A stretch of DNA of 64,000 nucleotides from an uncultured Alphaproteobacteria bacterium (GTDB lineage Bacteria > Pseudomonadota > Alphaproteobacteria > Rhizobiales > Beijerinckiaceae): the NCBI GenBank assembly GCA_963697785.1, contig OY969098.1, forward strand, positions 1,107,386-1,171,385, written 5' to 3'. This document shows, piece after piece, positions 18,237 to 47,798 of the stretch. Each line of letters starts with the position of its first letter. The stretch's first letter is position 1. A program made the position numbers and the translations under genes. The notes beneath the pieces are model-generated. The model was given only the letters and a program-made list of their open reading frames with translations, searched no databases and was not told the DNA's origin.

Positions 18237-19979
18237 ATGCTTATCCTTGGATTGAACGCCTTTCATGGGGACAGTTCCGCCTGCGTCATACGAGACGGGG
18301 CGCTGGTTGCAGCGGCCGAGGAAGAGCGTTTTCTCCGAGTAAAGCACTGGGCTGGATTCCCGTAAATCGATCGCCTGCTGCCTGCATGAGGCGGGTGCTC
18401 AGCTATCGGATATAGATCATATAGCAATCAATCAGAATAGCCGCGCCAATCTTGTGGGAAAGCTCCGTTACCTACTGCTACAGCGGCCTGACTGGCAATT
18501 GGTGCTTAGCCGTTTTCGGAACCGAAGCTTGCGCGAAAGAATGCCAGATATACTCACGAAAAGTTTCCCCAGGGCAAAGTTTCGTGGTCAGCTACATCAT
18601 GTCGAGCACCATGTGGCGCATCTTTCATCCGCTTTTCACGTCTCTCCCTTCGAAGAGGCGACCACCATCTCCATCGACGGCTTTGGCGATTTTGCGAGTG
18701 CAGCGTGGGGTAAGGGACGCGGTTCGGAAATTTCTGTCGACGGCCGGATTTACTTCCCCCACTCGCTGGGAATCTTCTATCAGGCTCAACTCAATATTTA
18801 GGATTTCCGCATTATGGCGACGAGTACAAGGTTATGGGGCTGGCTCCTTATGGGAAGCCTCTGCACCTCGATGCGATGCGACAAATCGTTAAAACGAAGC
18901 CCGATGGATCTTTTGAGTTGAGCCTAGATTTTTTCCGCCACCACAAGGAGCGTATTTCCTATGAGTGGAGGAGCGGCTCTCCGGAATTCATTGACCTTTT
19001 TGGCCCTGCGCTGGAAGAGCTTCTTGGTCCTCGTCGTCATCCGACAGACACTCTCGAAGATCGCCACAAGAATATCGCGCGTTCGGTTCAGGCTATGTAC
19101 GAGGAGGCTTTTTTTAACTTCCTCAATGTGCTGCAAGCAAGACACGCATTATCCAACATTGCGATAGCCGGCGGCTGCGCCGCAAACTCCGTCGCTAATG
19201 GAAAGATCCGTCGCATGACGCCTTATAAGCGTGTCTATGTTCAATCAGCAGCTGGCGATGCCGGTGGGGCTATCGGCGCGGGCTTCTCCGTGTGGCACAA
19301 GCTCGGCGGCCAGCGCTCCTTCTCGATGGATCATGCAAACTGGGGGCCTCAGTTCGACGATGTCTACATCGACAAATTGCTTGCCGGACATAAGTCGCGC
19401 ATCACAGAGGCCGGGTGCCGGGTTGAATTTATCTCCAGACTCTGCGGAACTTTGTGCACTGACAGCCCAGGAAATCGCCGCTGGAAAGGTAATCGGCTGG
19501 TTTCAGGGACGCATGGAATGGGGCCCTCGCGCTCTTGGTAATCGATCCATCCTCTGCGATCCGCGCCGGGCCGATATGAAGGACATTTTGAACGCTAAGA
19601 TCAAACGCCGTAAATCGTTCCGGCCCTTTGCGCCTTCAGTCCTGTCAGAGGCCGTCGGAGAGTGGTTTGAAGAGGATGACGACGTGCCGTTTATGATGCA
19701 GGTCTTTCAGGTCCGCGAGGATAAACGGCGCCAAATTCCAGCCGTGCGCACGTCGATGGATCTGGTCGCCTTCAGACTGTTAAGTATTCCGCCAACCCGC
19801 GCTATCACGCCCTGATTTCGCAATTTTTCAAGCTGAGCGGAGTGCCAATGGTGCTCAACACATCTTTCAACGAGAATGAGCCTGTCGTCTGCAAGCCAGA
19901 TGAGGCGCTCGATTGCTTTCTACGCACGAGCATGGATGTATTGGTTCTTGGCAACGCGGTGATCCGGCGCAGGCAGTGA
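18237..19979 (+). pseudogene. carbamoyltransferase (NodU/CmcH family), at least 4 frameshifts
   Basis: MLILGLNAFHGDSSACVIRDG, HHVEHHVAHLSSAF..IDGFGD, MGLAPYGKP, GWFQGRMEWGPRALGNRSIL..SFRPFAPS and TSFNENEPVVCKPDEALDCF..LVLGN are spread over three frames. Confidence 0.75.
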
Positions 19980-21045: not shown

Positions 21046-22002
21046 TCAGTATCGCGACGCCGCCGCAGCTTCGCGTGCTCTTTGTAAGAGGGGCGCAAGG
21101 TTAGCGTTCTCGACGTATCGGCCCACTACATTCGGCGTTTTCCACCCACCAGCCTGCATAATCGGCAAAAGACTTAATCCCGAAACAATCATGTCCTGCG
21201 CTGCGCCCACGCGCATCGAGTGACTTGATAGGCCATTGACGACCTGGGCGGACAGACCGGCGGCCCGGGCCGTCCGCTTTAAAATCCGATTGATCGAGTA
21301 GGGGTGGAGAGCGCGATTGCCGATGCAGTGGCCACGGACGGCCGTAAAGATGTAGCCCGAGTCGATTTGTGCCGCTTTCAACCAGCCGCGAACCAGCGTC
21401 AGGGTTTCAGGTGAAACATATCCAAGCCTACCTTCTCCATAGGGATCGCTTTTGGACCGTCTTATGAAAATCTGAGCAGATCTGCGAAACGGGGAGTTGA
21501 GATCCTCCACCCGCAAGCCGACCAATTCCGAGCGTCGACAAAGCGTGTCGTACCCGAGCATGATCATCGCACAATCGCGCGCTCCGGCTAGCGTTTTTGG
21601 ACAAGCAGCGATCAAGAGATCTCTTAGATCAATCGTGAGCCCCAATGCTTGTCGCGGTCTAGCGCGCTTCTTCCGCAGCGCTCGCCGTAAAGCAATGGTG
21701 ACCTCTTCGTCAGTTACAGGACTTTCCATTCGGAGAAGCCGATGGATTTTGCGAATAGCCGCCAGCCGACGCTTGAGGGTCGCCGCCGAAGAGTGCTCTG
21801 TTTGGTCCGCGATGAAGGTGGCAACTGTTTCAGCCGTTGCAGGGAGGGGGCTGCGTCTTTCGACGCTGCACCAAACGTCAAATGCTTCGAAATCACACCT
21901 GTAGGCTTTGAGAGTGCTAGCAGCATAAGCCCCCTCAAGACGCCTCAAGGCAGTCCTCCAATCGGCACGGAGGGACTTGCGTTGTCGCGAAGGGGCAGTC
22001 AT
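21046..22002 (-). CDS. tyrosine recombinase / island integrase
   Basis: Intact 318 aa with a LCRRSELVGLRVEDL Arg box, SSHSMRVGAAQDM (HxxR) and GGWKTPNVVGRYV (catalytic Tyr region). Confidence 0.85.
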   Translation of the reverse strand: MTAPSRQRKSLRADWRTALRRLEGAYAASTLKAYRCDFEAFDVWCSVERRSPLPATAETVATFIADQTEHSSAATLKRRLAAIRKIHRLLRMESPVTDEEVTIALRRALRKKRARPRQALGLTIDLRDLLIAACPKTLAGARDCAMIMLGYDTLCRRSELVGLRVEDLNSPFRRSAQIFIRRSKSDPYGEGRLGYVSPETLTLVRGWLKAAQIDSGYIFTAVRGHCIGNRALHPYSINRILKRTARAAGLSAQVVNGLSSHSMRVGAAQDMIVSGLSLLPIMQAGGWKTPNVVGRYVENANLAPLLQRAREAAAASRY

Positions 22003-23594: not shown

Positions 23595-23982
23595 GCTTCG
23601 CCATAACCCCTTCCTGACGAGGATATTTTTTCGGCAGGGTAGGGCGGCGGGGCCGCCGATGTGCGATAACGGCTCTTGGCGCCCTCGGCGCAGCAAATCG
23701 GCCGGCGTCGCGCAAGAAAGGCTCAAGGTGCAGCGAGGCTGACCAATCAGGAGTGGCCTAGGTTACTACCGGCCTGGACCCTACCGCTTTTCCTGCTGAC
23801 TGTTTTCAGCGCCGGGTGAATGTCGACCACCGATCCAATGGGCGATTGCTATCGGCGCCGGGATAGCCGGCGACATCGTTCCGTCTAAGAGCCGTGTTTC
23901 CAGTGTATGACAGGCTTGCCCGAACATGGGCGAGGAATGAAAGGACACGCCCCTGGTTCAGAAAGTTCAAGTTTCGAGGAAA

Positions 23983-24785
23983 TTGCAAATCTGGTGCGTA
24001 TGTTTGGTGCTGACCATCGCAGTCGTGGTCTTCTGTGTGCGCTATCTAGACCGGCCAATTTGCTTATTTGCGGATCGCCTGTTCGGCCAGTTCACTTGGA
24101 TCGGCGACCTCAAGCGGACACCAAGTCTCTTCGACCCGTTGGCTTTGTTGCTATTTGCGTTCTTCCTCTTGCGTCGCCTGGCGCGCCGGCCCTTCAGCAA
24201 GCTCGATCTTGTTTGTCTGCTTGGTGATGCAAGTCTCTTGCTCACGCGCTACGCCAACGACGAGCTCAAGTATGTGTTCGCACGCACCTATCCCAAATGG
24301 GGATCTCCATCCTTCCTCCGCGACGGGGCATATAGCTTCAACTTTTTCCGTCACGGACATGATTACCTCTCATTCCCCTCGGGGCACACCGCCGCGGTCT
24401 GCGCTTTACTCGCCATTGTGTGGGTGTTTTATCCGCGATTTAGAGCGCTCTATGCATTAACAGCAATCGGAGTTGTTGTCGTGCTGGTCGCGACGAATTA
24501 TCATTTTCTGTCGGATGTCATAGCGGGGGATTCGTAGGTGCGTCAGGCGGCACCTTGTGTGTCTCTGCCGGGCAGTTTTGGGGCTCCGCCATTTCCTCGT
24601 TGCGAACCGAGCCGACCGAAAACGCTCGGGTTGGAAAGCAGGATCACTTGCAAACGCCAACTGGTCGCGAGGGTGGAGGTGACGAGGTCTCGACGTTGGA
24701 TTTCCGACATTCTCCGAAGGAAACGCCGCGGCGAATAAGCTCGGGATCAGTCGACATCACAAAACCGGAGCTCCTAGATGACTAG
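23983..24785 (+). pseudogene. PAP2-family membrane phosphatase, 1-nt deletion near 24530 (paralog of 62144-62995)
   Basis: SFPSGHTAAV and NYHFLSDVIAG are PAP2 motifs. After SDVIAG the frame breaks. The tail (..STLDFRHSPKE..ELLDD) continues in ORF 24555-24785 and aligns with the C-terminus of the intact paralog. Confidence 0.7.
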
Positions 24786-25862
24786 GAGTGCCGCATCCGC
24801 CGTTGAATTGCTATCCCAACTCGCGGAACAGCCAAATGGGATGACGCAAATAGAGACCAATCCCGTAACAATGGCGTATTTCGCAAAAATGTTGCTGTCC
24901 CAGGGAAAGTCTGAGAGCGCGATTGGGCTTGCCCGGCGCGCCATGACGTTGGCTCCGAATGATGGCGAGATCGAAGCGGTTGCCTCGCAGGTGTTGAGCT
25001 ACGAAGTCCCCCCTTGGCATTTTTCGATCGTTCGAGACAAGGCGCGGAACGCCGCTTATGACGAGGCGCTGCGTCGCAACGTTCGGCCAGCCGGCGTGCT
25101 GGAAATTGGTGCCGGATCCGGCATTCTAGCGATGATGGCCGCGCGCGCCGGCGCGCGCGAAGTGATCAGCTGCGAATGTGATCATGCTGTTGCTGCTATT
25201 GCGAGAGATATCGTAGCACTGAATGGATTTTCCGATTGCGTGAAGGTCGTCCCTAAGCACTCACGTGACTTAGAGATTGGAAACGATCTCGACGGGCCAG
25301 CGGACGTGCTCGTATCTGAAATCGTCAGCAGCAATCTTCTGGGCCAGGACGTCTTAGGGTGCATGGAAGATGTAGTTGGGCGGCTTACGCGACCAAATGC
25401 CTGTACTATTCCGTCGCACGGTTCCGTGCGCGTTGCGCTCGCACGTTACGATAGACTTCACGAGAAGCGGCTGGGAATGTCAGATGGCTTTGATCTTTCC
25501 CCCTTGAACAAGCTTGCTGGTCGAATAGACATAAAAGTGGGAGACGAGGCCCTGAAACGGCTAAGCGAGGCGAAAGATCTCTTCGCATTTGATTTCGGTT
25601 CTGGTGGTCCGTTTGAAGAATGCCGAAGTTCCATCAGTGTCACGTCGACGGGCGGGCGCGCCAACGGGATCGCCCAATGGATTAAACTCAGAATGGATGA
25701 GAAGGAATTTTATGAGAGTCGACCGACCGTTGGTGCTAAATCGTGCTGGGGCGTAAATTCTATGCGTTTAAGAAGCCGATTGATCTTGAGCCGGGACGCG
25801 AAGTTATCGTGCACGGCGGCCGCGATCGAACCTCTACGTGGGTTTGGACGGGAGGACGGTAG
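24778..25862 (+). pseudogene. PRMT-like class I methyltransferase, frameshift near 25740
   Basis: VPPWHFSIVRDKARNAAYDEAL..VLEIGAGSGILAMMAARAGAREV..VSEIV is the layout of protein arginine N-methyltransferase-type enzymes. The probable true C-terminus FYAFKKPIDLEPGREVIVHGGRDR is off-frame and stops at 25860-25862. The track ORF tail to 26040 is run-on. Confidence 0.55.
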
Positions 25863-25943
25863 CGGCCGCAGCATGGGCCACGAGAGGCGCCCCCGCGCTA
25901 GCTCGCAGGCAGGTTCTAAGCAGCACATTAAGGAATTACCACA

Positions 25944-26725
25944 ATGCAAATCGATTGCAGCATGCTTGCGATTGATCATCCCGCGCCTTCAGAGCAAATC
26001 CTTCTCGCCAGCAAACATCTTATCATGGATGGATATGTAATCCTCGGTAGCGAATTCCCTCGGAGACCATTTCCCAGCTGAATGAGCAATTCAATAAATC
26101 TTACGCGCAATATTTGCGAGACACGGACTCCGACTACGTCCTAAAAGTAGGGGATCGGAGATATATGACTATTAGGATTTCGGGTCCCTTCCGAGATCCG
26201 ATTGTCTATGCAAACCCGTTCATCTTATCAGTGGTGCGTGAAAGTCTGGGCCTCGATGCCATCTTGGAAAGTTTCGGACCATTCGTTTCACTGTCGGGCT
26301 CCGAAACGCAACATGTGCATCGCGATTTTCCAGTACTCTTTGATGCAGGTATATCCCCACTCTTGCCAGCTCATGCATTAACCGTTGTCATTCCATTGAT
26401 TGAAATGAATGAGCTGCACGGCACGACCGCGGTGTGGCCAGGAAGTCATCGCTGGAAGAGCTTTGATGATAAGGTTGTCTCAGAAACCCCGCGGATTGAG
26501 ATCGGATCGTGTGCAATCTGGGACTTTCGGCTTTTCCACGGCGGCACTCCTAACCATTCTGATATGCATCGGCCGATCCTCTACCTGACATATGCAAGGA
26601 GTTGGTATCGGGATCCTAAGAATTTTTTGAAGGAGGGCCAACGCCGTATCTTGTTGGGCCGAGGCTTCATTCACAGCCTTCCGGAGGATCAGCAAAAACT
26701 ATTCTCTCATATTCGGTGCAATTAG
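25944..26725 (+). pseudogene. phytanoyl-CoA dioxygenase (PhyH) family Fe(II)/2OG oxygenase, frameshift near 26070
   Basis: ATG at 25944 follows AAGGA. HVHRDFP (HxD), TAVWPGSHRW and FRLFHGGTPN are present. The N-terminal 45 aa are in another frame. Confidence 0.7.
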
Positions 26726-27434: not shown

Positions 27435-27517
27435 CGCAACCTTTTGATTGCGAAACAATCTGATATGCTTCTGTCGGAAGAAAGGTGCGGTGGCCATTGC
27501 CTAAAGAAGGTGAAAAG

Positions 27518-27766
27518 ATGCCCATCGGTTTGTCGACGGTAGTCAAGCAAGCAAAGGACCAAATTTCATGCAAACTAGACAATGAAGTTGCAATTCTGAA
27601 TATGCAGAGTGCTCTGTACTTTGGCTTGGATGAAGTTGGATCTGTAATTTGGGAGGAACTTGCCGAAGAAAGAACGGTAAGCGATATTTGTAGGAGTGTT
27701 CTCGAGCAATTTGATATTGACGAGCACGAGTGCCAATCTGATGTGATGGGGTTCCTGGGTAATTAA
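27518..27766 (+). CDS. PqqD-family RiPP recognition element (lasso B1-type chaperone)
   Basis: ATG follows GAAGGTGA. ISCKLDNEVAILNMQSALYFGLDEVGSVIWEEL..RTVSDICRSVLEQFDIDEHECQSDVMGFL is typical PqqD. A PqqD-like ending LIEQGLVE continues in the next frame, so a 3' frameshift at about 27762 is possible. Confidence 0.75.
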   Translation: MPIGLSTVVKQAKDQISCKLDNEVAILNMQSALYFGLDEVGSVIWEELAEERTVSDICRSVLEQFDIDEHECQSDVMGFLGN

Positions 27767-27847
27767 TTGAGCAGGGTTTGGTCGAAACCGCGGAACCGAT
27801 TGGATGGATGACGGCTCGCCGTAGCGCTCGCACTAGAGTTCCAGGGA

Positions 27848-29235
27848 ATGAGCGAGGAATACGAGGGATATTCAAACGAGATCGATTACACGTTTGGTTA
27901 TTATCCGTTGCTCTCGCCACCCCACTTGCGACTGGCGTGTCTCAATCAGTCGACCTCGTTTCCTTCCAATCGACCTTTTCGCTATCTTGAGCTCGGACAC
28001 GGAAACGGTGTTTCGCTGAATATTCATGCGGCTGCCTGTCCAGGAGAATATTGGGGGATCGACATCAATCCCTCGCATGTAAACTTTTCCAGAAGCTTGC
28101 AGAGGCAGCGGACACCGGGGTACGCGTACTCAACCTGTCGTTTTCCGATCTGCTGAACTATCCGAGTCTTCCCAATTTTGATTTGGTTGTGATTCATGGA
28201 GTTCGGTCATATATTTCCGCCGCCAATCGGAATGCCATAACCGACCTGTTACGCCAAAAACTCACCGAAGGCGGGCTCTTCTATGTGAGCTATAATTGCC
28301 TGCCGGGCTCTTCCAGCATTGTTCCTCTCCAGTATCTTTTGCGGCTCTATTCGGAGAGAGGAGGCTGCCAAGGGACGGTCGTCGATCGGCTTCAGGCAGG
28401 AATTCGCATTTGCGAACGAATTGTGGCATGCCGGGAGCGAGTTTTTCGCTTCGATTCCGAAAGCGTCTGAACGTTTAGAGCAGATCAAAAGCGAAGATCC
28501 CGCCTACCTTGTTCATGAATATCTGCACGAGTTTTGGCATGTTCCTTCATTCGCTGAAACTGCGCGCAGTCTATCGGACGCCGGACTGCGTTTCCTGGCC
28601 AGTGCATATCTACTCGATCACTATGAAGATTTGAATATCTGTCAGGAGGGGATGGCGCTTCTCGCCGCGTCAGAGGACCCTTTGTTGCGAGAAACAGCGC
28701 GCGATTTTCTGCGCAATAAGCAATTTAGACAGGATATTTTTGTCAAGGGTAAAGCGTCAGGTCCGGGGCCGGAGCGCAAGCGCGACATCGAAGACACTTC
28801 GATAATGTTGGGTATATCGCAAGTCGAAATTCCATCTAAAATAAAAACGAAAGTCGGTTCTATTAGCTTGTTAGGGCCCCCATTTAGCGATGTTGTGAGC
28901 GCGCTCGCCCGGGATGGCTACCGCAGCAAAACGGTCGGTGAAGTTATCGAGCGATGTCGCCACCAACTGAGCGCGGCGGAGGTCACGAGAGCCATTGTGA
29001 TCTTGATCGGCGTGGGCATAGTCTACCCCGTACAAGACGACGCTATTGTCGCCCGCGCTGCCGCCGGCTGCCGACGTCTCAACGAGGAAATTCTTCGCCA
29101 TACTAGGTCCGGGAAGCGACTAACCGCGTTGGCTTCTCCGGTAACAGGATGTGGGATTTAGATGTCTCGGCTGCAGCAACTCTTCTTGATCGCCTATCAA
29201 GCGGGTGCAAGGACTAGCGACGAGTGGGCCGAATA
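27848..29235 (+). pseudogene. SAM methyltransferase with methyltransferase-regulatory (PF10119-like) domain; at least 2 frameshifts plus an in-frame TAG at 29159
   Basis: YTFGYYPLLSPPHLRLACL..YLELGHGNGVSLN, DLVVIHGVRSYIS..GGLFYVSYNCLPG and EDPAYLVHEYLHEFWHVPSFAETA..NKQFRQDIFVKG. The text reads through TAG into MSRLQQLFLIAY. Confidence 0.55.
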
Positions 29236-29395
29236 ATTTGCGTGGGAGAGAAGTGACCCTTTATGAGGCCTCAACCGCGGCTTCCGGTGATTTAGAGCAC
29301 GTATCCTACGGGAGAGCCTCCTATTTCAGGTAAGCCTGCCGGTTTATTCCGCTTTAGGTCTCACCGGCCAAAAAAACTCCTGATCATCCTGGGAC

Positions 29396-29560
29396 TTAAC
29401 CGGTCCTCTGATTAGATTTATATTCGTACGCATCTTGCTTTCCCTTGGTGAAGGTACCAAGAGTGATCTCGCTAAGATTCCCGTGCTGGACTAGCGCGGG
29501 CTTCCTGTAAGGGCGTCTCACGGCCTCGACCGTCTTCGTGTTGGCGCTTTTCTCAACCAT
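29396..29560 (-). CDS. lasso peptide precursor A1 (54 aa, not in the ORF track)
   Basis: MVEKSANTKTVEAVRRPYRKPALVQHGNLSEITL/GTFTKGKQDAYEYKSNQRTG. It has a YxxPxLxxxGxxxxxT leader motif with Thr at -2, Gly1 and Asp9 in the core, and GGGGG 7 nt upstream of the ATG. Confidence 0.75.
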   Translation of the reverse strand: MVEKSANTKTVEAVRRPYRKPALVQHGNLSEITLGTFTKGKQDAYEYKSNQRTG

Positions 29561-29756
29561 GGCCAGCCCCCAACTGTGTTATTATGATTCATAGCACCGG
29601 ATCCCGGATCGGTCAAAATATCATGATGTGCGGGGCTCGAAGTAGTGGGTTTCAGACAACGCTATTCTGCAGAGGGGGCGGTCACTGAAACCAGTCGGTC
29701 TAGGTTTCAATTGCCTTTCAAGGAATTAAGATTTGCGCCCACCAAGTAATTGGCTC

Positions 29757-30686
29757 GTGAAAACGGCCGTCCATTATTCTTATCGCTATCGGGTCTACGG
29801 GCTGACCTTAGCGACCGACCTTAGGCTAAATCTACCGATGCCGATAGGTCCGATGCGACAGTCGAGCTCGGGTTAGGTAGGCAGACCTGTTCCGCAAAGC
29901 GAGAGAGAAGGCTCCCGACTCGAACGATTGGATCCAGCATGCAGTTCTCGAGGTTGCGCTCTCTATATGCGATGGGGGATGGTTCGAAATTCTCGCTTCT
30001 TCTGACGGGCGGCGCGTCCTGTGCAACAACCTGAGCGAGATGCCGCTCGAGTCGTTCGAAGCTTATCTCACGAATTTCGCCGTCAGCGCTGCGCTGATCC
30101 AGCAGGGGGAAGAAACTCTGCACGCGACAGTTGTCGAGATCAGCGGCCGTGCGATCGGTGCTCGGTCCCAGCGGCGCTGGCAAATCGACACTCGCGGCAT
30201 TTTTGATCAACCAAGGCGGCGCCTCGTCACAGACGACATGCTGAGGGTAAGTTCGCGAACGGCGCCGTCTTTGCGCAACCTGGTCCGCGCCGCATTAAGC
30301 TCTTCGGGGGCCTGCAGACCGATATCTCCCTGACCGCGAGTCGGCTATTGGAACCCCCTCTGGTGAAAAGATAATTTTCGAACCGAAGGGTCGGGTAGCA
30401 GTACGGTGCCGCGAACGCTGTCGGCACTTTATCACCTCGAGGCGCCTTCTCCGCCGTCAAATTGGATCAGCCCCTCCTCAAGCAATTGCGCGGAGTTGAA
30501 CTTTTCAACACGATCCTATCCTCAAGCATGGACAACAGATTGCAGTCGCCCGAAGAACTCGAGCGCCAGTTCCGTTTCGCCGAACGCCTTGTGAAAAAAG
30601 TGCCCCTTTTCCGGCTGACCTATTCGAGGAGCTTCAATTTCATCGATCAGGTCGCCAGTCGAATTTACGAATTGGCTCCGCTATGA
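29757..30686 (+). pseudogene. HprK-related kinase (lasso-associated), at least 4 frameshifts
   Basis: GTG start with VKTAVHYSYRYRVYGLTLATDLRLNLP. The P-loop VLGPSGAGKSTLAAFLINQGGA is off-frame at about 30160-30225. LVTDDMLRV and the C-terminus LFRLTYSRSF are also present. The stop overlaps the next ATG (ATGA at 30683-30686). Confidence 0.65.
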
Positions 30687-31121
30687 GGCCGCTCGACACG
30701 TTCCTTCGTTTGAAGCCTGGGGATCAAAAGCTCATTCTTGAGGCAGGATTAGCCTTGGCTTTCTGTTGGGTGCGGATGCGGCTTCAGAGCTTTGAGCAGC
30801 TCCAGGCGTGGGCAACGGCGCGGTAGCGGCGCGCAGGTGGAGCAATTGACCTGGGCCGTCAAGACTGCGTCACGGCGTGTACCGGGGGTGACTTGCCTGT
30901 CCCAGGCGCTTGCACTCCAGCATTTGCTTTCTGGAAATGGCCATTGCTCGGAGCTCAGAATTGGCGTCGACAAATCGGAGGGACGGTTCACCGCCCATGC
31001 TTGGCTCGTTCTCGATGATCGGATCCTGATAGGGGGATCTGCACTCGAGAATTACAAGCTGCTTGCCGCCTGGTCGACGCGTAGCGGCCTCGTACGCAGG
31101 GATCGGAAGGACCAAACCTAA
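30683..31121 (+). pseudogene. lasso peptide B2 protease (transglutaminase-like cysteine protease), one frameshift near 30825
   Basis: MRPLDTFLRLKPGDQKLILEAGLALAFCWVRMRL, then CLSQALALQHLL (catalytic Cys) and FTAHAWLVLDD (His). Confidence 0.75.
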
Positions 31122-31122
31122 C

Positions 31123-32870
31123 ATGAGCTTTCTGGTTCTGTTCAATTCTGATCGTGCTCCGATCGAGATAGAGGCCAGCGGCAAAATAGGATCAAAAAAC
31201 AAAACACTGCGGTCTTGGGGAAGTTCCGGCAGACCGCTTTCATGTGGGCCGATTCGGCTCCGGTGTGTCGCGCGGGGCACCGGGACGCCGATTGATCTCG
31301 ATGGACGAATTTGGATTATCGGGCGCGTCCGGTTGGACGGTCGGGACGGACTTTGCGCAGATCTTCGCGCCTCGCCAACGAACTGCGACAAGCTTCTTTG
31401 CCTGCGTTCATATGCAGAATGGGGGGAGCAAAGTCTCAAGCATTTACAGGGAGACTTTTGTTTCGCCATTTGGGACGAGGATCGGCAGCAGTTATTCTGC
31501 GCTCGCGATCAACTCGGCGTAAAGCCGCTCTTTTATGCCCATGCCGGGAACAGATGGCTCGTAAGCGATGCACTTGAAAGCATACGCTCGAATTCGACGT
31601 AGGAGAGCGAGCTCGACGAACATTGGGTGGCGGACTTTCTCACCACGGGCTTTTGTCTCGACTTTCACAGAAGCGTTTACAAAGAAATCAGGCGCGTGCC
31701 TCCCGCGCATGTGTTGGTCGCTTCGTCGGACGGAATTTAGTGCGCCGGTATTGGACATTGAACATCGAGGCGCCGATTTTCTATCGCAATGAGAGACAAT
31801 ACCTCGATCACTTTCATGAACTCATGGCCCTCTCGATCCAAGATCGGCTCCCCCAGGGCGGGTAGGCGTCGCGATGAGCGGCGGACTGGATTCGTCGACT
31901 TTGGCGGCGAAGGCTGTGGCGGTTGCTGGAGACGCCTCGCGCGTGATCGCAGATACCTGCTATTTCGAACATCTGATCCCCGACGAGGAAAAACATTTCA
32001 GCTCCCTTGTCGCGAGCCGGCTCGGCATCCGGCTCACGCTGAGGCCCGTCGACGATACCTGTTACGATCGCCTTTGGGAAACGCGCGACATCCAACCCCG
32101 GAGCCGACGACATCGATTACCAGGGCGGCCTCCGAGCGCATCTTTGGCGCCGAAATGGCGAAGCAGGCACAGGTCTGGTTCTATGGCGAGGGACCGGACA
32201 ACGCGCTCACGTTCGAATGGAGAGCCTATCTCCGCTGGTTATGGACAGCGTGATTGGCCTCGATTTGGCGGCGCTATGGTCCAGTATCTTCGCAGCAAGC
32301 AGGCGCGCGAATGGCGCACCACCTTCAAAACATACGCCTTCCGCCGGCGCAAAGAGGAGATAGATGCTCTTCGCCGCCCCCCGATGGATGGACGACGCGT
32401 TCGTCAAAAAGGTGGATCTCGCTGCGAGAATGCGCGACGCGAGCCATACTGGCTAAGTGCGCACCCGTGGCGCCCGCGTGCGATCGCCTCATTCACAAGC
32501 GCGATTTGGCCTAGCTTCCTTGATGGATTCGACGTAGCTGTTTCAGGAGTCCCGATCGAGTGGCGGCATCCTTATCTCGATCTGAGGGTTTTGACCTTCC
32601 TGCTCTCAGTCCCGCCGATCCCGTGGGCCCGACGCAAATTTCTGATCCGCAAAGCGATGAAGGGCGTGCTTCCCGAAGAGGTCCTTTCAAGAGGCAAAGC
32701 ACCATTGGCGGATGACCCGGTTGTAAAGATGCTGCAGAAGTATCCGCTTCGAGTATTTTCTTGTGTCAGCGGTTCGGGAATTTGTAAACGAAGCCAAAGT
32801 GCCAAGCAGACCAGGTAACGCGCCGAAATTCATGAGCTTATCAAGATTCGCGCATTGGACTTCTGGTTGA
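31123..32870 (+). pseudogene. lasso cyclase (asparagine synthetase B-like, C protein), at least 4 frameshifts
   Basis: HLQGDFCFAIWDEDRQQLFCARDQLGVKPLFY, the PP-loop VAMSGGLDSSTLAA, WRHPYLDLRVLTFLLSVPP and RRKFLIRKAM are spread over three frames. Confidence 0.8.
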
Positions 32871-32984
32871 GAAACCGGTGACATTGGGCAAAAATTTCAT
32901 TATGATCTTCCTGCCGAAACTGCCCTCCACGAATTTGCTCTCGGATCTACGAACCGCAGGGGCGCGTAAGGTGCGAATGAAGCC

Positions 32985-34128
32985 ATGCCTTCGCGCGAAT
33001 TTATGTTCCTGTGTCGTGTCATCAGTGGCGATCCCGCTGCTAAGCGGATCCAGAACTCTGAGGCAAGGCATCGATTGGACGACGCTGGGGCGTTTGGCCG
33101 AATGCCACGGAGTAAGGCCGCAACTGCTTCATGGTCTCAGACGAATAGGCTTGTAATCCACCTCCTGAAACAAAACAGCTCTTGACGAATTCCAGCAACT
33201 CCATCTGGTTCGATGCCTCCATCTCGGGGCGAACTCCTAGGCATCGCAGACTTGTTCGGAGAGAAACATATTCGTTTCGCGACATTCAAAGGGGTGGCGC
33301 TGGCGATCTCTCTCTATGGAGATATCTCTCGACGGGAGTTCAACGACATCGACCTCATCGTTCATGAAGCTGATTTGGAGACCGCCGAAAGCTGTCTTCG
33401 GTCGCGCGGCTATCGCGCCAAGTCTGGAGACAGGTCCTATCGCAACGCTTTCCTGGCCTATCAGAACCAATACATTTTTCAAACGAGCGAGAAATGATTG
33501 ATCTCCATTGGGATTTCAGTAAAGGGAGTTCCGTTTCCTCTTCGGGCTCGCGAGATCTGGGGCCAATTGGAATCAGTATCATCGCCGGTCGAGACATTCC
33601 CACGCTCGGGCGTAACGAACTCGCGCTTTTTCTCGCCGGGCACGGAACAAAGCAAGGGTGGAAATCGCTAGGCTGGGTCTGCGATTTCGCAGATTTCATC
33701 CGAGCCTATCCCGAAATCGATTGGATAAGTCTTTGGCGGCGCTCCGCTCAAAAGCATTGCGGCCATCCGATTTTGCTCGGCTGCACATTGGCGTCGAGAC
33801 TTGCTCGATGCGCCGGTGGACGAAGAATTGCTCGCCTGTGCTGATCGGGAACCGGCCGTCAGGCTCTGGCGGATGCCGCGATGAAACGAATGATGGATCC
33901 TCCTCGGCGGCGGCGGCGGCCTCGACCCCCGAAGACTTTCTGGGAGGTCTGGATCTCTGCGAGACCTGGACCCAAAAGGCCAGGGTCCTATGGGGCTTGG
34001 CTTCGACGCGGACAACCGGCGATTACGAGGCCATGCCGCTGCCACCCCCGCTGTGGCGTCTGTATCATCTGACCAGGCCATTCCGTCTCGGCATAAAGAT
34101 CCTATCGAGCGCCCGTGCAAGATCCTGA
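32985..34128 (+). pseudogene. PF14907-type (NTP_transf_5) nucleotidyltransferase, at least 4 frameshifts
   Basis: IDWTTLGRLAECHGVRPQLL, FATFKGVALAISLYGDISRREFNDIDLIVHEADLETAESCLRSRGY, IDLHWDF and YHLTRPFRL are in alternating frames. Confidence 0.6.
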
Positions 34129-34152
34129 CGTCTGCTCGTTGAGCGCGTGGCC

Positions 34153-35953
34153 TCATGATGAGCATTGCGAAATCGATGCCGCCCTGCGTTGGTCGATGTT
34201 CGTCGCTACCTTCTTCAGCTTGCCCTCCTCGATGCGGAAGGCTCTGGTCAGCCGATCGAACTGTTTCGGGGCGGTGCGTCGCAAGCAGCATTGTCACGTG
34301 CCCTTTGAGCGCTTCTATTCCCTCCAGAACTGTCTGCTCATTTTGTTCGTCGAGCGAGTTCGTCGGTTCGTCCAGGATTAGCAACGCCGGATCACGAAGA
34401 AGAGCGCGCGCCAATGCGAGCCGTTGCCGTTCCCCGCCAGAAAAACGCGCCCCACGATCCCCGACGACTGTGTCCATGTGCCTAGGCAGAGCATTCACGA
34501 ACCTGGCCGCGCCAGACAAGACCAGTGCTTTCATGAGTTCGCTCTCGTCGGCGTCGGGCTTAGCGACGAGCAAATTCGCACGAATGGTGTCGTGAAACAG
34601 AAAAGGATCTTGCGAGACATAGGCGATCGAGGTTCGCCAAGCTCGCGCCAATTCTTCTGTCAACTCATGCTCATCGATCCATATTCTTCCGCTGTCAGGT
34701 CGTAGCAGACCAGCGAGCATGTCGAGCAGCGTGCTCTTGCCGGCGCCTGATGGCCCGGAGACGACCGTGAGCGTTCCGGCCGGCAGGTCGAAAGTGATGT
34801 CCCTCAAAGCCAGCGGGTCGTTTGCGCTATGTCGGAAGCTGACGTGCTCAACGCGAATGCGTCGATCAACCTTTACGGATTTGCGAGACTGACTGACTGG
34901 CATCTCCCGAGCGGCTGTGCAAGCCTTCCAAAGATCGAGAATTGTGTAAGCTGCCGGGGCGGTGTGCAAAAGCTGCTGCGCGGCTTGCTGCAGGGACTGG
35001 GCCAAGGGCAAGAGGCGGTAAAAAATCAGAGCCAGGACCAGGACTTCCGCGACAGGCATGTGCAGCAAAGCGGCGCTTATCCATAGGAACGCGGCGACTG
35101 CGATGGCGCCGGCGATCTCCTGAAACGCTCGGGCGTTGGCCTGACTCGAGACGTAGGAGAGCAGACTGCCTTTGACCTCGTTAATCGCCTCGGCGAAGGC
35201 CGTCACATATAAATCCTCTGAGACACAGCTCTTGGTGATCTTGAGGCCGGCGAGGAACTCCGAGATGCGATGATAGAGTTCTTCGTAAGCGGCTGACAGC
35301 GATTCTCCCAATCGCAAACTCTCAGTGAGACGTCCCCGGGCCAGCCACGCAAGCAAAAAACCAATCGTCAACGCCCCGAGCGCAAGCGCCGGAGCGATTA
35401 AGCATGCGGTGATCACGTAGGCGCCAATCATCATTGCTTGCGCTGGCATCTGCAAAGCGAAGTGAACTGCCGAATTGAGGCGATCGGTTTCTACGGTCAG
35501 GGCGGACAGAAATTCTGAACGGCGCACGTGGCGCAGAAAGGACCAATTCGCATGCGCAATCGCCGAATAGAGATCAATGCGGACGTTGCGAATGAGATCC
35601 AGCCGAAGACTCTCGAGATGGAGGCTGGCCTGGCGATTTATGAGGGAACGAGTCGTCATGAGGGCGACGAATATCGCCAGGACGACAAGTAGATTTGGCC
35701 GGACGCCGAGGCTCTGCAAAAAGTAGGAGAACCATGCCTTCGCGGATCGTCCGGCACCTGCCGTTGGATCGAGCATTTGAAGAAGTGGAACGAGGAGAAA
35801 AAGGGTGAGGGCTTCGGTTAGGCTTGCAGAAAGTACCAAAGTGCCCGCAATGAGCACCCGCCGTGGAGTTGTTCGTTGCAGAAGGAGCTGCCAGAAGCGC
35901 CTGATCTGGCGAACAGCTTCCGGTGCGGAAGCTGGACGTCGTTCGCCACTCAT
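34153..35953 (-). pseudogene. ABC exporter, fused permease/ATPase (lasso D-type), 3' frameshift near 34245
   Basis: Six-TM N-terminal half. Walker A GPSGAGKSTLLDML, signature FSGGERQRLALARAL and Walker B LLILDEPT are present. After THRPETVRSAD the plausible end RIEEGKL.. is off-frame with a stop at 34153. The track ORF extension to 33668 is run-on. Confidence 0.8.
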
Positions 35954-36547: not shown

Positions 36548-36733
36548 ATGTCTGCGAAAAACACCAATGATCGTGCGCCTCATAACAACAGAACGATGTG
36601 CGTGAGACGCTCTTACAAAAAGCCCACATTGATCCAGCATGGGAGTTTGCGCGAGATTACGCGCGCCACTGGCTATGGTGGGAAGTCCGATCATTGCGAC
36701 CCCCACCATTATCCAAATCGCACCCATTTTTAG
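36548..36733 (+). CDS. lasso peptide precursor A2 (61 aa, inside track ORF 36431-36733)
   Basis: MSAKNTNDRAPHNNRTMCVRRSYKKPTLIQHGSLREITR/ATGYGGKSDHCDPHHYPNRTHF. The leader is paralogous to A1 (VRRxYxKPxLxQHGxLxEIT). The core shares T2, G6, K7 and D9 with A1. GGGGGGAAGG lies immediately upstream of the ATG. Confidence 0.7.
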   Translation: MSAKNTNDRAPHNNRTMCVRRSYKKPTLIQHGSLREITRATGYGGKSDHCDPHHYPNRTHF

Positions 36734-37451: not shown

Positions 37452-37994
37452 TCAAATCCTAGCGCGCGTAGATACGGATCGGTGCTGTTCCAAAGTTCGT
37501 TGGGATTTCGTATGGCGCGAAGAGACCTGGAATATCCGAATATCCGAATATCCGAAGATCAGCAGAACGGCTGGGAGATTTGGCCGCACGCCGATGCTTC
37601 GCAATAGGCGGGGCAGCCATGGAATTACACCGTGTCCCGCACTCGGATCAAGCATCTGAAGAAGCGGAACCAGCAGGAAAAGCGCTAGAGCTTCACTCAA
37701 GCTTGCAAGAAGCGCCAGGATGCCAGCAACGAGAATCCGGCCCGCACCCGCTCGCTCGACGAATATGCGCCAAAAACGCACGATCTGGCCGACGGCCTCC
37801 GATATCGAACCTTCACTCCCTTCGTCTTTCACTTTGATAGGCCCCAGAGGCGGTTTCTGTCGGCTCTTTTTGGAGAGTTCACGTCTGCGAGCTAGCAGGA
37901 GACGCGGCTCGAAATCAATGATGCAAAGCTCGGTGAAGTCCTTCGACGGCGCTTCATGTTTGCCCCAGCTGACCTGAACTTGAGGATAAGCCAT
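37452..37994 (-). pseudogene. 5' remnant of a second ABC exporter gene (paralog of 34153-35953)
   Basis: EAVGQIVRFWRIF..RILVAGILALLASLSEALALFLLVPLLQMLDPSAG..SIGVRPNL aligns with EAVRQIRRFWQLL..RVLIAGTLVLSASLTEALTLFLLVPLLQMLDPTAG..SLGVRPNL. Homology stops at the tandem repeat at 37530. Confidence 0.6.
37530..37560. repeat. 8-bp tandem repeat GAATATCC x3 plus a partial fourth copy
   Basis: Read directly: gaatatcc gaatatcc gaatatcc gaagatc. It sits exactly where homology of the ABC remnant ends. Confidence 0.9.
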
Positions 37995-38212: not shown

Positions 38213-39685
38213 ATGGCGCTTTTCGTTCCGGTTTCCAGAGCGCGTACGGTATACAATGTTGAATTGTACGATGTATTTTGCGTCGCTGCCGCGCCATGGC
38301 TAGCTTTTGCGCTCCGCGATACGCGATTTTTTGGGCCGCCACTGGTAAGCCAGGGAATCGTTTATTGGTGTATTTCTTTTGTTTCTGGGGCCGCTATTCT
38401 TTACTCATCGGGGATAGGCGGCATCATCTGTAAGTACTTTTCGGCCGCAGATTGCAAACGCATTGTTCTGGCGGCCTTCATTTCGGTTTCGATCGCTTCG
38501 ATGGTGGCGTTTACGGTCACGAGACTGAACACCATTCCGCGTTCTTTGCCAGTTATTCAGTTTTTCCTAGTTGGATGTTTGTTGATTGGTGGTCGGCTCG
38601 TCCGGGCCGGATTAGCGCGCGGAGAGTTGACCGAAGGTCGCAACGTTCACGCGCAAGTCGACGACAATGTAATCATCGTTGGAGCGAACCACGTCACGAC
38701 CTTCTACACCCGCTTGATTGAAAAATGCGGGTTGGGACGTCAGCGGGTTTTGGCGATCGTCGATCCCGACCCGCGTTTGCGGAATCAAACGGTCGGCGGA
38801 CATCGCGTCATTGGAACGCCAGAGGATCTGCCAGCGATCCTGCACGAGTACAAAACTCATGGTATTGAAATTCGCAAACTCGTCGTCACGATCGAGCGGT
38901 CGCAATTGTCTCAAACCGTGCTGCAATGTCTGCACGCCGACAGCTCGGTTGGCCAACATATAGACGTCGAATTCCTTGTTGAACGGCTGGGGTTTGCGGC
39001 GAAAGACTATGCGCGCGCACAAGAAACTGAAGCGGTAGTCGGGTCGCAAGTGGATAGCTCGATGATTGCCTCTGGTCATAGAGGCTACTGGGCAGCGAAA
39101 CGCGCAGTCGATATCATCGTGGCAGGTTGTTTGTTAGTTGTTCTAAGCCCGGCGCTGTTAATCACCGCCCTAATGGTGCGTGTCGCGATCGGCTCGCCAG
39201 TTATCTTCTGGCAGCGACGGGTGGGGCGTCTGGGGGTTGGGATCTTCGTATTCAAGTTCCGAACGATGAATGCGCCTTTTGACGCGCTCGGCAATTTCCG
39301 TGAGCGATATGAGGAACCTGGCTCCATAGGCGCTCTTTTGCGTCATATGCGGGTCGATGAGTTGCCGCAGCTCTTGAATATTCTGCGGGGCGATATGTCG
39401 CTGATCGGGCCGCGTCCTTTGTTGCCAGAGGACCAGCCGTCAGACAATCAAATACGTCTTCTTGTAAGGCCTGGTATAACGGGTTGGGCACAGGTGAACG
39501 GTGGTAATCTAATTACGACCGAAAAAAAGAACGTGCTGGACGAATATTACGTGCGTCACGCATCACTGTCGCTCGATGCCAAGATTCTGCTGAAAACGGT
39601 GCCGATCGTATTTACTGGCGACCGTCTTCCCGACGACGATGACGAAATGGGCGTTAGAAGTTCACGACAGTTGAGGGGCGTATAG
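38213..39685 (+). CDS. polyprenyl-phosphate glycosyl-1-phosphate transferase (bacterial sugar transferase, WbaP/ExoY-type initiating enzyme)
   Basis: Intact 490 aa with N-terminal TM helices. The C-terminal domain has KRAVDIIVAGCLLVVLSP, GSPVIFWQRRVGRLG..FKFRTM, DELPQLLNILRGDMSLIGPRP and RPGITGWAQVNG. Confidence 0.85.
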   Translation: MALFVPVSRARTVYNVELYDVFCVAAAPWLAFALRDTRFFGPPLVSQGIVYWCISFVSGAAILYSSGIGGIICKYFSAADCKRIVLAAFISVSIASMVAFTVTRLNTIPRSLPVIQFFLVGCLLIGGRLVRAGLARGELTEGRNVHAQVDDNVIIVGANHVTTFYTRLIEKCGLGRQRVLAIVDPDPRLRNQTVGGHRVIGTPEDLPAILHEYKTHGIEIRKLVVTIERSQLSQTVLQCLHADSSVGQHIDVEFLVERLGFAAKDYARAQETEAVVGSQVDSSMIASGHRGYWAAKRAVDIIVAGCLLVVLSPALLITALMVRVAIGSPVIFWQRRVGRLGVGIFVFKFRTMNAPFDALGNFRERYEEPGSIGALLRHMRVDELPQLLNILRGDMSLIGPRPLLPEDQPSDNQIRLLVRPGITGWAQVNGGNLITTEKKNVLDEYYVRHASLSLDAKILLKTVPIVFTGDRLPDDDDEMGVRSSRQLRGV

Positions 39686-43441: not shown

Positions 43442-43680
43442 TCAAGTCTGTGCGCTGCTGGATATTTTGGCTTCCTTTGAAGGCTTTAGGTCGACTTGGG
43501 CCTCATATTCCTGATCGAGTTCCTTCTTTGCGGCCGAGAGCTGACGGGGCTCGAACTCAGAGAACTTGATTGGCTTGCATCGTTCGGCGGCACGGGTGAG
43601 CGCGCCAAACATCAGCTTCAACACGGCCCGCACGCCGAAGGCGTTCGGAATGCATGGGGGCGAGAGCCACCTACGTTGGC
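43442..43680 (-). mobile_element. C-terminal remnant of a transposase (family uncertain)
   Basis: IPNAFGVRAVLKLMFGALTRAAERCKPIKFSEFEPRQLSAAKKELDQEYE resembles transposase C-termini. There is no upstream body. It abuts the truncated sugar-transferase paralog. Confidence 0.35.
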
Positions 43681-43689
43681 AGGAAAAAT

Positions 43690-44378
43690 TGCGGCTATAT
43701 CGGAGCGGTTGGGATTTGGACCGCGCGAGACTTCAAGCGCGGCCGACGCGGTGCGCGATCTTTATGCAGATCGAGTTGCGAACGCCGCATGCAGCAGGGG
43801 CTATTGGAGGGTGAAGCGCGGCATCGACATCATCATCGCAAGCTGTTTGTTGATTCTGTTATTATCGATATTGCTCGTCACTACAGCGATAGCGTGGGTT
43901 GCGATCGGTTCGCCGGTGATCTTCTGGCAGCGCCGGGTTGGGCGTCTCGAAGCCAGAATTTTCGTCTTCAAGTTCCGGACAATGGCGGGCAATTCGATTG
44001 AGACGGTCATCGCTGCGAGCAATCCGACGGCCTGTCTTGGGTCGGGGCACTTCTGCGTCGCGCGCACGTCGATGAATTTCCGCAACTCTTCAAATACTTC
44101 GCGGAGATATGTCGCTGATTGGGCCACGCCCTTTGCTGCCGATTGGTCAACCTGCTGACAGCGAAACACGCCTTCTTGTTCGACCCGGCGTCACGGGTTG
44201 GGCCCAGGTCAATGGCGGCGCTGTCATCCCGACAGAAGACAAGAATGCGCTTGACGAATATTATGTTCATCAGGCTTCCCTCTGGCTCGATATCCAGATC
44301 CTGCTGAAGACCGCGAGGGTCGTATTTACCGGCGATCGACTTCCCGACGACGACGCTCGGTTGTCAGCTTGGCGATAA
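43690..44378 (+). pseudogene. sugar transferase paralog, catalytic domain only, 5'-truncated and frameshifted
   Basis: ERLGFGPRE..YWRVKRGIDIIIASCLL..GSPVIFWQRRVGRLEARIFVFKFRTM, then a frame break, then MSLIGPRPLLP..RPGVTGWAQVNGG..LDEYYV in ORF 44109-44378. Confidence 0.7.
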
Positions 44379-44645
44379 TTCATGCGGATAGGAGGGCAGG
44401 GGATTTGAGGGCGCTCGCGGACGATGGAGCGTTTCGCAGCCGTCTCGGCCAGTGACGGGCGGGGCTTTTTGCAGAACAAAGCCATTGCCGGCCATTCTTG
44501 CGGATCGCCAGATTTCCTCCGCTGCCAAGGCACTTGGGTATTGACTCTTGTTCTGCCAAACTCGAGTCGTTCTCAGTTTGCAGAGGGTTGACCCACCATC
44601 GCCCTTGTCTTCCCACTGCACTATAATGCACCAACGAGGTGCGTT

Positions 44646-44816
44646 ATGGTGCCCATCCAAGACCTTGTCCGCAAGAATAATCGTGATATCGCTTTATTTC
44701 GTGGGTACATAACTAAGCTCACTGGCAAACCAGGAAACCGAAAACTCAAAGGCGATCTGAAGCGGCGCATTGCCGCTGCGGAAGAGTCAAACGCCACCTT
44801 GCGAGCGGCGCGCTAA
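44646..44816 (+). CDS. small basic hypothetical protein (56 aa)
   Basis: ATG sits 5 nt after GAGGTG. MVPIQDLVRKNNRDIALFRGYITKLTGKPGNRKLKGDLKRRIAAAEESNATLRAAR. It is below the ORF-track size cut-off. Confidence 0.25.
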   Translation: MVPIQDLVRKNNRDIALFRGYITKLTGKPGNRKLKGDLKRRIAAAEESNATLRAAR

Positions 44817-44839
44817 GGTCATGTCAAATTCAAGCAGCG

Positions 44840-45148
44840 TTAGGGCCTCGGGGCATTGTTATCCCTCCGCTGAGGGGGGTCATAGTTCGCGATGCCGGAA
44901 AGCAGATAGCCGACAAGTGCGCCGATCAGCGTTCCGATGGTGGCGCCGTCTAAAATCTTTTCAAGCGCCAAGATTAGGATGACGGGGACCAAGAATACGA
45001 CGCCAAGAAATTGAATTGACCTCCCGCCGATGGGTTTGCCTGCCACGATGCGATGCAACATAAAACCGAGAAAGCCAATCGGCAGCATTGCGATGGCGAC
45101 AAGTTCGACGATGCCTTTGACTGTGAGAGTCGTCCAAAATCCCTGCAT
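44840..45148 (-). CDS. small membrane protein
   Basis: 102 aa with three hydrophobic helices (IVELVAIAMLPIGFLGFML, FLGVVFLVPVILILAL, IGTLIGALVGYLLSGI). Confidence 0.4.
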   Translation of the reverse strand: MQGFWTTLTVKGIVELVAIAMLPIGFLGFMLHRIVAGKPIGGRSIQFLGVVFLVPVILILALEKILDGATIGTLIGALVGYLLSGIANYDPPQRRDNNAPRP

Positions 45149-45359
45149 AGGCCAACCATATAGGAAGCGCGGCCCGGAGGCGAGGGCAGGTCAAGAGGCC
45201 CGAATTTCAAACGGAGACACGATTAATTTTGATATTGGCCCCCTTTCCGCCGCCACTCGCCCGATGAAAACGGGCCAGCAAGGGGAAATGACGTGACGAA
45301 TTAGTAGACGCGAATGGTAGCGAATCCGCGTCTTCACCGTGGGCTGGCCCGCAAACGAC

Positions 45360-47242: not shown

Positions 47243-47280
47243 TTCAGTCCATGCTCCACATACATCGAGCAGAAGAATCC

Positions 47281-47628: not shown

Positions 47629-47798
47629 TCCCGTGCCACCGATAGACGCAATTCTTAGCGTAGGCAGATGCTAAGCGGAATGTGCCGCCCTAAGCTAGGC
47701 GCGAGTATCCTGTGGAGACACATTACCATTGCCGTTTGAAGAACCACCGGGCAAAAATGAAGCCGCCAACTGAGGCGCCCCGTCGAGACATCAGTATT

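Follow-up and report, generated by a model that had tools for sequence, protein, structure and literature searches.

A1 lasso precursor gene and its control region

The stretch of DNA analysed here, referred to as the window, comprises 64,000 nt (64 kb) of contig OY969098.1 from an uncultured alphaproteobacterium, with all coordinates counted from its first letter; our subject is a short gene within it, A1, which we believe encodes the precursor of a lasso peptide. Lasso peptides are compact and very stable scaffolds with antibiotic and receptor-binding activities, and their chemistry is widened further by tailoring enzymes. A1 occupies 29396-29560 on the minus strand and has an ATG start and 54 codons; its translation, MVEKSANTKTVEAVRRPYRKPALVQHGNLSEITLGTFTKGKQDAYEYKSNQRTG, exactly reproduces the 54-residue product proposed in an earlier reading of the same DNA, which we call the first-pass annotation. 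Residues 1-34 form the leader, the last two being Thr33 and Leu34, and the predicted core is GTFTKGKQDAYEYKSNQRTG, a cysteine-free peptide of 20 residues ending in ...QRTG. The ring is predicted to join Gly1 to Asp9 of the core, and the leader motif consists of Y18, P21, L23, G27 and T33. Before any tailoring, the predicted monoisotopic mass of the A1 lasso peptide is 2260.0872 Da.

The leader is recognised by the curated NCBIfam profile hidden Markov model (HMM) for lasso leaders, NF033521 (lasso_leader_L3): A1 scores 23.8 bits (E = 3e-5, with residues 18-36 matched) against a curated cut-off of 19 bits, so that the leader signature YxxPxLxxxGxxxxxT claimed on first reading is borne out by a profile as well as by eye. 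The scores for named subfamilies lie under their cut-offs (22.7 vs 30 bits for rhodolasso, NF033534; 16.7 vs 33 for lasso_cyano), and A1 thus falls into no curated lasso subfamily; Pfam gives no match for the A1 peptide. A loose regular expression for the leader motif finds only two matches in the six frames of the 64 kb, both of them within the lasso cluster described below, while a search of the window for tRNA genes and Rfam families found none. The genes for a PqqD-like protein (B1), a leader peptidase (B2) and a lasso cyclase all lie within 2 kb of A1, and the same genes are found in 10 related loci.

The position of A1, antisense between a methyltransferase and a kinase gene, is as first described. 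A1 lies 12 nt past 29383, where the 3' homology of the plus-strand methyltransferase ends, and it is divergent from the kinase, whose homology begins at 29733-29754; the intergenic control region, first put at roughly 200 bp, measures about 172-193 bp. Within it, on the minus strand, lies a promoter-like element at 29588-29616, made up of TTGACC (29616-29611), a 17-nt spacer and TATGAA (29593-29588), and it is followed by a G-rich Shine-Dalgarno sequence, GGGGG (29571-29567), 6 nt 5' of the ATG. When the DNA upstream of the precursor was aligned for 8 clusters, the TTGAC columns and the downstream G.T..T columns were invariant. A consensus scan for sigma-70 promoters and terminators returned no minus-strand promoter or terminator for A1; it missed the promoter-like element because the -10 hexamer ends in A. 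The conserved -35/-10-like element, together with the ribosome-binding site, supports independent transcription of A1 from what would be a promoter of its own.

Precursor family

Related clusters were fetched via homologues of the neighbouring kinase (L001, L003-L009 and L011-L013; kinases 47-73% identical). One of these relatives, L001, is a metagenome contig 89.5% identical to the window over 13.7 kb. The first-pass annotation had staked its claim on a conserved ORF (open reading frame) at this position in related clusters, and a homologous small ORF was indeed found in 10 loci: in L001, L003-L006, L008, L009 and L011-L013 it bears the leader and lies on the opposite strand directly upstream of the kinase, often without a gene call. 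In the more distant L007 the precursor is not divergent from the kinase.

Just five columns are invariant in an alignment of 12 precursors: Tyr18, Pro21, Gly27, Thr33 and Asp43. The last of these is core residue 9, and apart from it the core is hypervariable. The earlier assignment of Thr to position -2, Gly to core position 1 and Asp to position 9 therefore gains from the comparison: with the leader motif, Thr(-2) and Asp9 all invariant, cleavage after Thr-Leu and a Gly1-Asp9 ring are well supported. Of 30 cores, 22 have the Asp at position 9 and the others have it at position 10. The bulky residues Tyr11, Glu12 and Tyr13 had been suggested as plugs; Tyr13 is kept in the orthologue from L011, which is 76% identical to A1, but Tyr11 is Gly there, so that this suggestion holds in part.

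A profile search yielded about 40 called homologues, some of which, in metagenome-assembled genomes (MAGs) of Methylovirgula and Rhodomicrobium, already bear the name "lasso RiPP family leader peptide-containing protein"; all six sequences tested in addition against NF033521, the second precursor A2 (described below) and five homologues, pass. A1 had been described as unannotated, which is correct for the ORF track used at the time only: the exact A1 peptide is present in protein collections derived from NCBI and ENA, on a 2.74-Mb contig, and homologues carry the lasso-leader name assigned by PGAP (the Prokaryotic Genome Annotation Pipeline). Predicted lasso precursors are very numerous, and homologues of A1 have already been annotated automatically. 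Other searches added little. A scan of genome contigs from species representatives, which do not include the genome of the window, with the A1 precursor gave a single match, L002, and no genuine relative; we rejected L002 as an out-of-frame chance match (HGNLSEITLGT) within a large Bacteroidales gene. The corresponding scan of metagenome contigs gave one extra short locus, L010. A megablast search of the PLSDB plasmids with 13 kb gave no match, and a literature search with the leader string returned papers on LASSO regression only. Judged by sequence, A1 belongs to a widespread, uncharacterised, kinase-associated family whose members come mainly from Alphaproteobacteria (Methylovirgula, Methylocystis and Rhodomicrobium among them) and also from acidobacterial sequences. 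The relatives point to Beijerinckiaceae/Methylocystaceae-like Alphaproteobacteria as the source of the window.

Could A1 instead be open by chance, or encode a small protein that has nothing to do with lasso peptides? The ORF is short, Pfam is silent on it, and the ratio of nonsynonymous to synonymous substitution rates (dN/dS) is not clearly below 1: the pairwise value between A1 and the L011 orthologue is 0.64, similar to that of a control frame. Moreover, at the 2-10 indels per kb seen in the surrounding DNA, an open 165-nt ORF is not significant by itself. These two points count against A1 as a gene under selection, and since the pairwise dN/dS is uninformative, the case for selection on the ORF is made by family-wide motif conservation only. 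That conservation is nonetheless hard to reconcile with chance: a curated HMM is passed, the position, orientation and motif are repeated from cluster to cluster although the enzymes share only 47-73% identity, the invariant residues are the ones needed for leader recognition, cleavage and ring formation, and the promoter-like element is conserved too. We consider the idea of a chance frame to be, in effect, already refuted. We thus conclude, with a probability of about 0.85, that A1 is a genuine lasso precursor of an uncharacterised kinase-associated family, whose local enzymes are frame-disrupted in this assembly, with a leaning towards consensus error as the cause. What we observed directly for A1 itself is its ORF, the match to the HMM, the synteny, the set of invariant residues and the conservation of the promoter-like element.

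The variant of A1 on L001 differs in one residue, and at the DNA level in 1 substitution over 165 nt with no indel. We considered whether this near-identity reflects special selection on A1 and rejected the idea; a recombination tract of about 370 nt that includes the upstream region fits better.

Several observations on the relatives deserve separate mention. Core residue 1 is His, Ile, Val or Thr in many of them (P0123-P0162, L003-L013), and not Gly, Ala, Ser or Cys; such cores often read x-x-G-x-x-G-x-x-D. Either ring formation is tolerant at this position, or these members are cleaved at a site shifted from the one that the Thr(-2) rule predicts. L007 and P0130-P0145 form a distant subgroup (from a Rhodospirillaceae MAG and others) with longer cores ending in ...SDSRS and another gene order. 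Outside the L007-type subgroup, a C-terminal Ser is present in only 2 of 27 cores, while Thr stands 0-3 residues from the C-terminus in 26 of the 27, mostly after K or R. The L007-type subgroup may be a link between the A1 family and the characterised systems that phosphorylate Ser.

Biosynthetic and tailoring genes

The genes around A1 are those of a lasso cluster, and we describe each with its state in the assembly. B1, the PqqD-like leader-recognition protein (RRE), is encoded at 27485-27811 on the plus strand and was identified through PF05402 on its homologues. Its residues 1-92 are 100% identical to L011 by tblastn; a private 1-nt deletion at 27760 truncates the C-terminus, and there is another private deletion at 27799. 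The HPr-kinase-like kinase lies at 29733-30683 (+), as located by tblastn with the L004 and L001 kinases, the Pfam family Hpr_kinase_C being assigned on intact homologues; TIGR04352 and TIGR00679 give weak matches. The gene is split over three frames and carries 11 private deletions of 1-4 nt, with the P-loop GPSGAGKST and the motif LVTDDML still encoded, in different frames. The L001 and L004 kinases contain LHATVVE, GPSGAGKST and LVTDDML, which by inspection only provide candidate H, K and DD residues for the conserved His-Lys-Asp-Asp catalytic motif of paeninodin-type kinases.

The transglutaminase-like leader peptidase B2 follows at 30683-31121 (+), its 3' part matching NF033537 (70.9 bits) and PF13471; when the L004 B2 is used as a tblastn query, the gene falls into two frames, with one switch near 30810. 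Compared to L001, the kinase and B2 together contain 16 frameshifting indels. In L001 itself the two are joined in a 471-aa kinase-B2 fusion (L001 6448-7863), which we do not regard as a feature of the family since it is created by one private 1-nt insertion, roughly 20 nt short of the stop codon of the kinase; the equivalent site in the window is at about 30663, and all other clusters have separate, overlapping genes. The asparagine-synthetase-like lasso cyclase (C) is at 31123-32881 (+), with NF033535, GATase_7 and Asn_synthase matched on fragments. Relative to L001, 14 frameshifting deletions interrupt it, and stop codons lie in frame at 31600-31602 and 32454-32456.

Beyond the cyclase lies a nucleotidyltransferase remnant of the NTP_transf_5 family (32985-34125, +), found by tblastn with the intact proteins of L003, L004 and L011 and assigned through PF14907 on the L004 protein. 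It is spread over three frames with at least 3 frame switches. An NTP_transf_5 gene likewise follows the cyclase in L003, L004, L006, L008, L009, L011 and L013. The exporter, an ABC permease plus ATPase, is encoded on the minus strand at 34148-35953, where tblastn gives a single-frame high-scoring segment pair with 86.5% identity to L008; a frameshift about 25 codons before the normal stop lets the ORF run on to 33668, and one frameshifting insertion separates it from L001.

Upstream of A1 and convergent with it lies the candidate tailoring methyltransferase (27848-29383, +; Methyltransf_12 and MethyTransf_Reg), with 4 frameshifts relative to L001, including those at about 28090 and about 28403, and a TAG codon at 29159-29161. 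Further upstream, all on the plus strand, are a candidate hydroxylase of the PhyH family of Fe(II)/2-oxoglutarate dioxygenases (25944-26725, PF05721), with a private 1-nt deletion at 26052; a second candidate tailoring methyltransferase, PrmA-like (24778-25866, PF06325), with a private 3-nt deletion at 25093 and a 1-nt deletion at 25757; and, at the edge of the cluster, a PAP2-family phosphatase (23946-24785), identified through PF01569 gene calls in L001, L004, L009, L011 and L013, with a private 1-nt deletion at 24524 within a G run.

Beyond this edge, a tyrosine recombinase (integrase) is encoded at 21046-22002 on the minus strand by a 318-aa ORF, 86% identical to the L001 integrase. An integrase, often together with a small helix-turn-helix gene, adjoins the cluster in L001, L003, L004, L009, L011 and L012, and this recurrence suggests that the cluster travels as an integrative island; a look through the window for tRNA genes and obvious att repeats revealed none. 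One metagenome, ERZ25039540, holds as many as four distinct versions of the cluster (L001, L004, L009 and L012).

Second precursor gene, A2

A second precursor gene, A2, is absent from the first-pass annotation. It lies beyond the ABC gene at 36548-36733 on the plus strand, encodes 61 residues from the first plausible ATG, and was found by the leader regular expression; it scores 23.0 bits against NF033521. Its leader ends in ...YKKPTLIQHGSLREIT-R and its predicted core is ATGYGGKSDHCDPHHYPNRTHF, with Ala1, Asp9 and one Cys, corresponding to a predicted mass of 2478.067 Da. The A2 core is conserved in L008 and L009 and its C-terminus reads ...RTHF. As the A1 core is hypervariable and the A2 core conserved, the cluster contains one variable and one conserved type of precursor. 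In the L001 copy of A2 the frame shifts just past the leader, where 1 nt seems to have dropped out of a short G run, and an antisense 68-aa gene call that overlaps A2 in L001 is probably spurious.

Disrupted reading frames: consensus error or decay

The first-pass annotation did not remark on the deletions of 1-2 nt in the genes for B1, B2, the cyclase, the kinase, the nucleotidyltransferase and two of the tailoring enzymes, and stop codons are present in two cluster genes, those for the cyclase and the MethyTransf_Reg methyltransferase. With its maturation genes frame-disrupted as assembled, A1 could not be matured by its own cluster. What this means depends on whether the lesions exist in the organism or in the consensus sequence only, and here the flanks of the cluster are informative, as the window is 99-100% identical to L011/L012 at 23.9-29.1k and 34.6-37.6k.

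Across 5.15 kb of this near-identical flank we counted, relative to L011/L012, 11 indels, of which 10 are private deletions, and 13 private substitutions (6 transitions and 7 transversions). At an ordinary indel:substitution ratio of 0.1-0.2, such an excess of indels has a probability of P = 3e-6 to 8e-4. The core genes give a similar picture: in multi-species alignments, the cyclase has 10 private deletions (counted against 7 homologues) vs 4 private substitutions at invariant sites, and the kinase 11 vs 2. Every intact homologue has more such substitutions than the window does, 14 or more for the cyclase and 9 or more for the kinase. In the reference frame, dN/dS is 0.18-0.19. Most of the deletions lie outside homopolymers, and related Flye-style contigs likewise show sporadic private 1-nt indels. 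Taken together, the pattern of disruption fits long-read consensus error or very recent damage better than it fits old decay.

The strongest competing view is that A1 is genuine and its cluster truly dead, the frameshifts being real mutations in a decaying integrative island, with A1 an orphan relic that is still open by virtue of being short. Disruption in every maturation gene is what one would expect of such a relic, and several features of the window weigh against consensus error as the cause. The damage is patchy: over the 3 kb of 37.5-40.6k, only 12 substitutions and 1 indel separate the window from L014, a contig assembled independently from a public run, and at 53-62k there is a block of about 8 kb of accessory genes that is intact. 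The stops at 31600-31602 in the cyclase and 29159-29161 in the methyltransferase are clean nonsense substitutions. Undoubted gene remnants are also present, at 37554-37823, 43898-44353 and 52529-52902. Against true decay, on the other hand, stand the roughly 1:1 ratio of indels to substitutions in a flank that otherwise matches two other assemblies at 99-100% identity, the 10-11 private deletions per gene with almost no private substitutions at invariant sites, the low dN/dS, and the location of most deletions outside homopolymers, which is unusual for spontaneous bacterial frameshifts. We rate a truly dead cluster as a serious contender that falls somewhat short of even odds. As for the frameshifts as such, we lean, by a narrow preference, towards errors in the long-read consensus of a strain-variable island rather than real decay.

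A third possibility leaves the damage real or not and makes the local enzymes dispensable: A1 could be matured in trans by an intact paralogous lasso cluster elsewhere in the genome. Leaders of the family are near-identical, as in YRKPALVQHGNLSEITL (A1), YRKPALIQHGNLREITL (L003) and YRKPALIQHGSLHEITL (L004), so that foreign enzymes might accept A1; metagenome ERZ25039540 shows that related but distinct clusters, four in this case, can occur together; and a second, partial copy of the PAP2 and PrmA genes begins at about 62.1k and runs off the window. However, no second B1/B2/C set is visible within the 64 kb, and the second PrmA copy is itself frame-shifted near 63250. We consider maturation in trans improbable, and retain a genuine A1, with a consensus somewhat more probably miscalled than not, as our preferred account.

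The central 5.3 kb (29150-34500, from A1 to the 3' end of the ABC gene) is a mosaic, 78-93% identical to any relative, and A1 with its upstream region groups with L001, unlike the L011/L012-like flanks. This suggests an exchange of cassettes between island copies, or else a chimeric consensus. For genome mining, the locus is a warning that a flawless short precursor ORF can sit among enzyme genes that are unreadable, and that indel-rich stretches of a long-read assembly can mimic pseudogenised clusters.

Proposed maturation and comparison with known systems

The steps of maturation, the Thr target and the lasso fold proposed below are drawn by analogy with characterised systems. A1 would be transcribed from its own conserved promoter, divergent from an operon of kinase, B2, C and nucleotidyltransferase genes. 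The PqqD-like B1 would bind the YxxPxL part of the leader, the transglutaminase-like B2 would cleave after Thr33-Leu34, and the cyclase would activate the side chain of Asp9 and join it to the amine of Gly1. The predicted product is a 9-residue ring threaded by the 11-residue tail AYEYKSNQRTG, to be exported by the ABC transporter. On the linear precursor, the HPr-kinase-like enzyme and the NTP_transf_5 protein probably modify Thr19, which belongs to a [KR]-T-x motif at the C-terminus, and the peptide may be modified further by the PhyH dioxygenase and by the two methyltransferases.

Thr19 is our candidate for the kinase target because A1 ends in Arg-Thr-Gly and the family keeps a near-terminal Thr. 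What speaks against phosphorylation of this Thr is that the characterised lasso kinases require a C-terminal Ser, which A1 does not have: PadeK, ThcoK, SyanK and PsmK act on the linear precursor and phosphorylate its C-terminal Ser, which is strictly conserved (PMC9266682, PMC8498205, PMC6993621). The +80 Da adduct that was first proposed as a signature in mass spectrometry rests on kinases of this kind, which need a C-terminal Ser, while A1 ends in Thr-Gly. A conserved sub-terminal Thr that departs from the published C-terminal-Ser rule is at the same time a lead towards a new kinase specificity.

Among the closest known systems is the paeninodin type (PadeA/PadeK, ThcoA/ThcoK, and SyanA/SyanK of the proteobacterium Sphingobium yanoikuyae), which like the present cluster combines split B1/B2, a cyclase, an ABC exporter and an HPr-kinase homologue. 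Paeninodin-type precursors also resemble A1 in having a leader Thr at -2 and a ring Asp/Glu at position 7-9 (PMC9266682, PMC8498205); they differ in ending in the phosphorylated Ser, whereas A1 ends in Arg-Thr-Gly and A2 in RTHF. The A1 family goes beyond the paeninodin type in its MethyTransf_Reg and PrmA-like methyltransferases, its PhyH dioxygenase, its PAP2 phosphatase and its two precursors.

In the psm cluster for pseudomycoidin from Bacillus pseudomycoides, a kinase (PsmK) is combined, as here, with a nucleotidyltransferase (PsmN) whose gene comes after the core genes and before the exporter, and PsmN adds hexose to the phosphate installed by the kinase (PMC6993621). By analogy, phospho-hexose decoration is a likely model for the pair of kinase and NTP_transf_5 protein. 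Pseudomycoidin has a 9-residue ring starting from a small residue, Ala1, comparable to the 9-residue ring predicted from Gly1 in A1. It is, however, a Firmicute product modified on a C-terminal Ser, and in the window both the kinase and the nucleotidyltransferase gene are frame-disrupted. Generic class II lasso precursors of proteobacteria share with A1 the leader motif, Gly1/Asp9, a core of about 20 residues and the lack of Cys; the relatives of A1 depart from this class in that many have His, Ile, Val or Thr at predicted position 1.

A broader reading of the family, which we offer tentatively and think rather unlikely to hold in all its parts, would make it a distinct subclass of tailored lasso peptides. 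Its kinase would act on a sub-terminal Thr ([KR]-T-x(0-3)-COOH) and the NTP_transf_5 protein would extend the phosphate; the MethyTransf_Reg and PrmA-like enzymes would methylate and the PhyH enzyme would hydroxylate the peptide; His, Ile, Val or Thr would be tolerated as residue 1; precursors of the A1 and A2 types would share one set of enzymes; and integrase islands would exchange cassettes of precursor plus enzymes by recombination. Whatever its chemistry, this is a sizeable uncharacterised family with two precursors per cluster and an unusual, co-conserved set of tailoring genes.

Other features of the window

Frame disruption is patchy over about 10000-37500 and 43500-49000, and the regions 0.6-9.7k, 38-43k and 49-62k look intact. 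A carbamoyltransferase gene at 18343-19812 is split over three frames, and between 44.2k and 49.0k there is one stop-free frame of at least 150 aa only. The gene remnants are truncated paralogues. The one at 37554-37823 (-) is the N-terminal part of an ABC transporter, 59% identical to the ABC protein of the cluster. The other two, at 43898-44353 (+) and at 52529-52902 (+), are pieces of the Bac_transf sugar transferase encoded at 38213-39685; for the piece at 52.5k the identity is 85%, and 383 nt contain 10 gap openings.

Finally, an intact accessory block at 53003-63616 encodes a methyltransferase, a MobA-like NTP transferase, a sulfotransferase, an apiosidase-like protein and a 983-aa APS-kinase/PEP-utilising fusion, followed by a paralogous PAP2 gene (62141-62992) and the frame-shifted PrmA-like gene that runs towards the end of the window. 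In L003, a PEP-utilising protein and a methyltransferase adjoin the integrase. The block may be a second copy of the island or a sulfation module.

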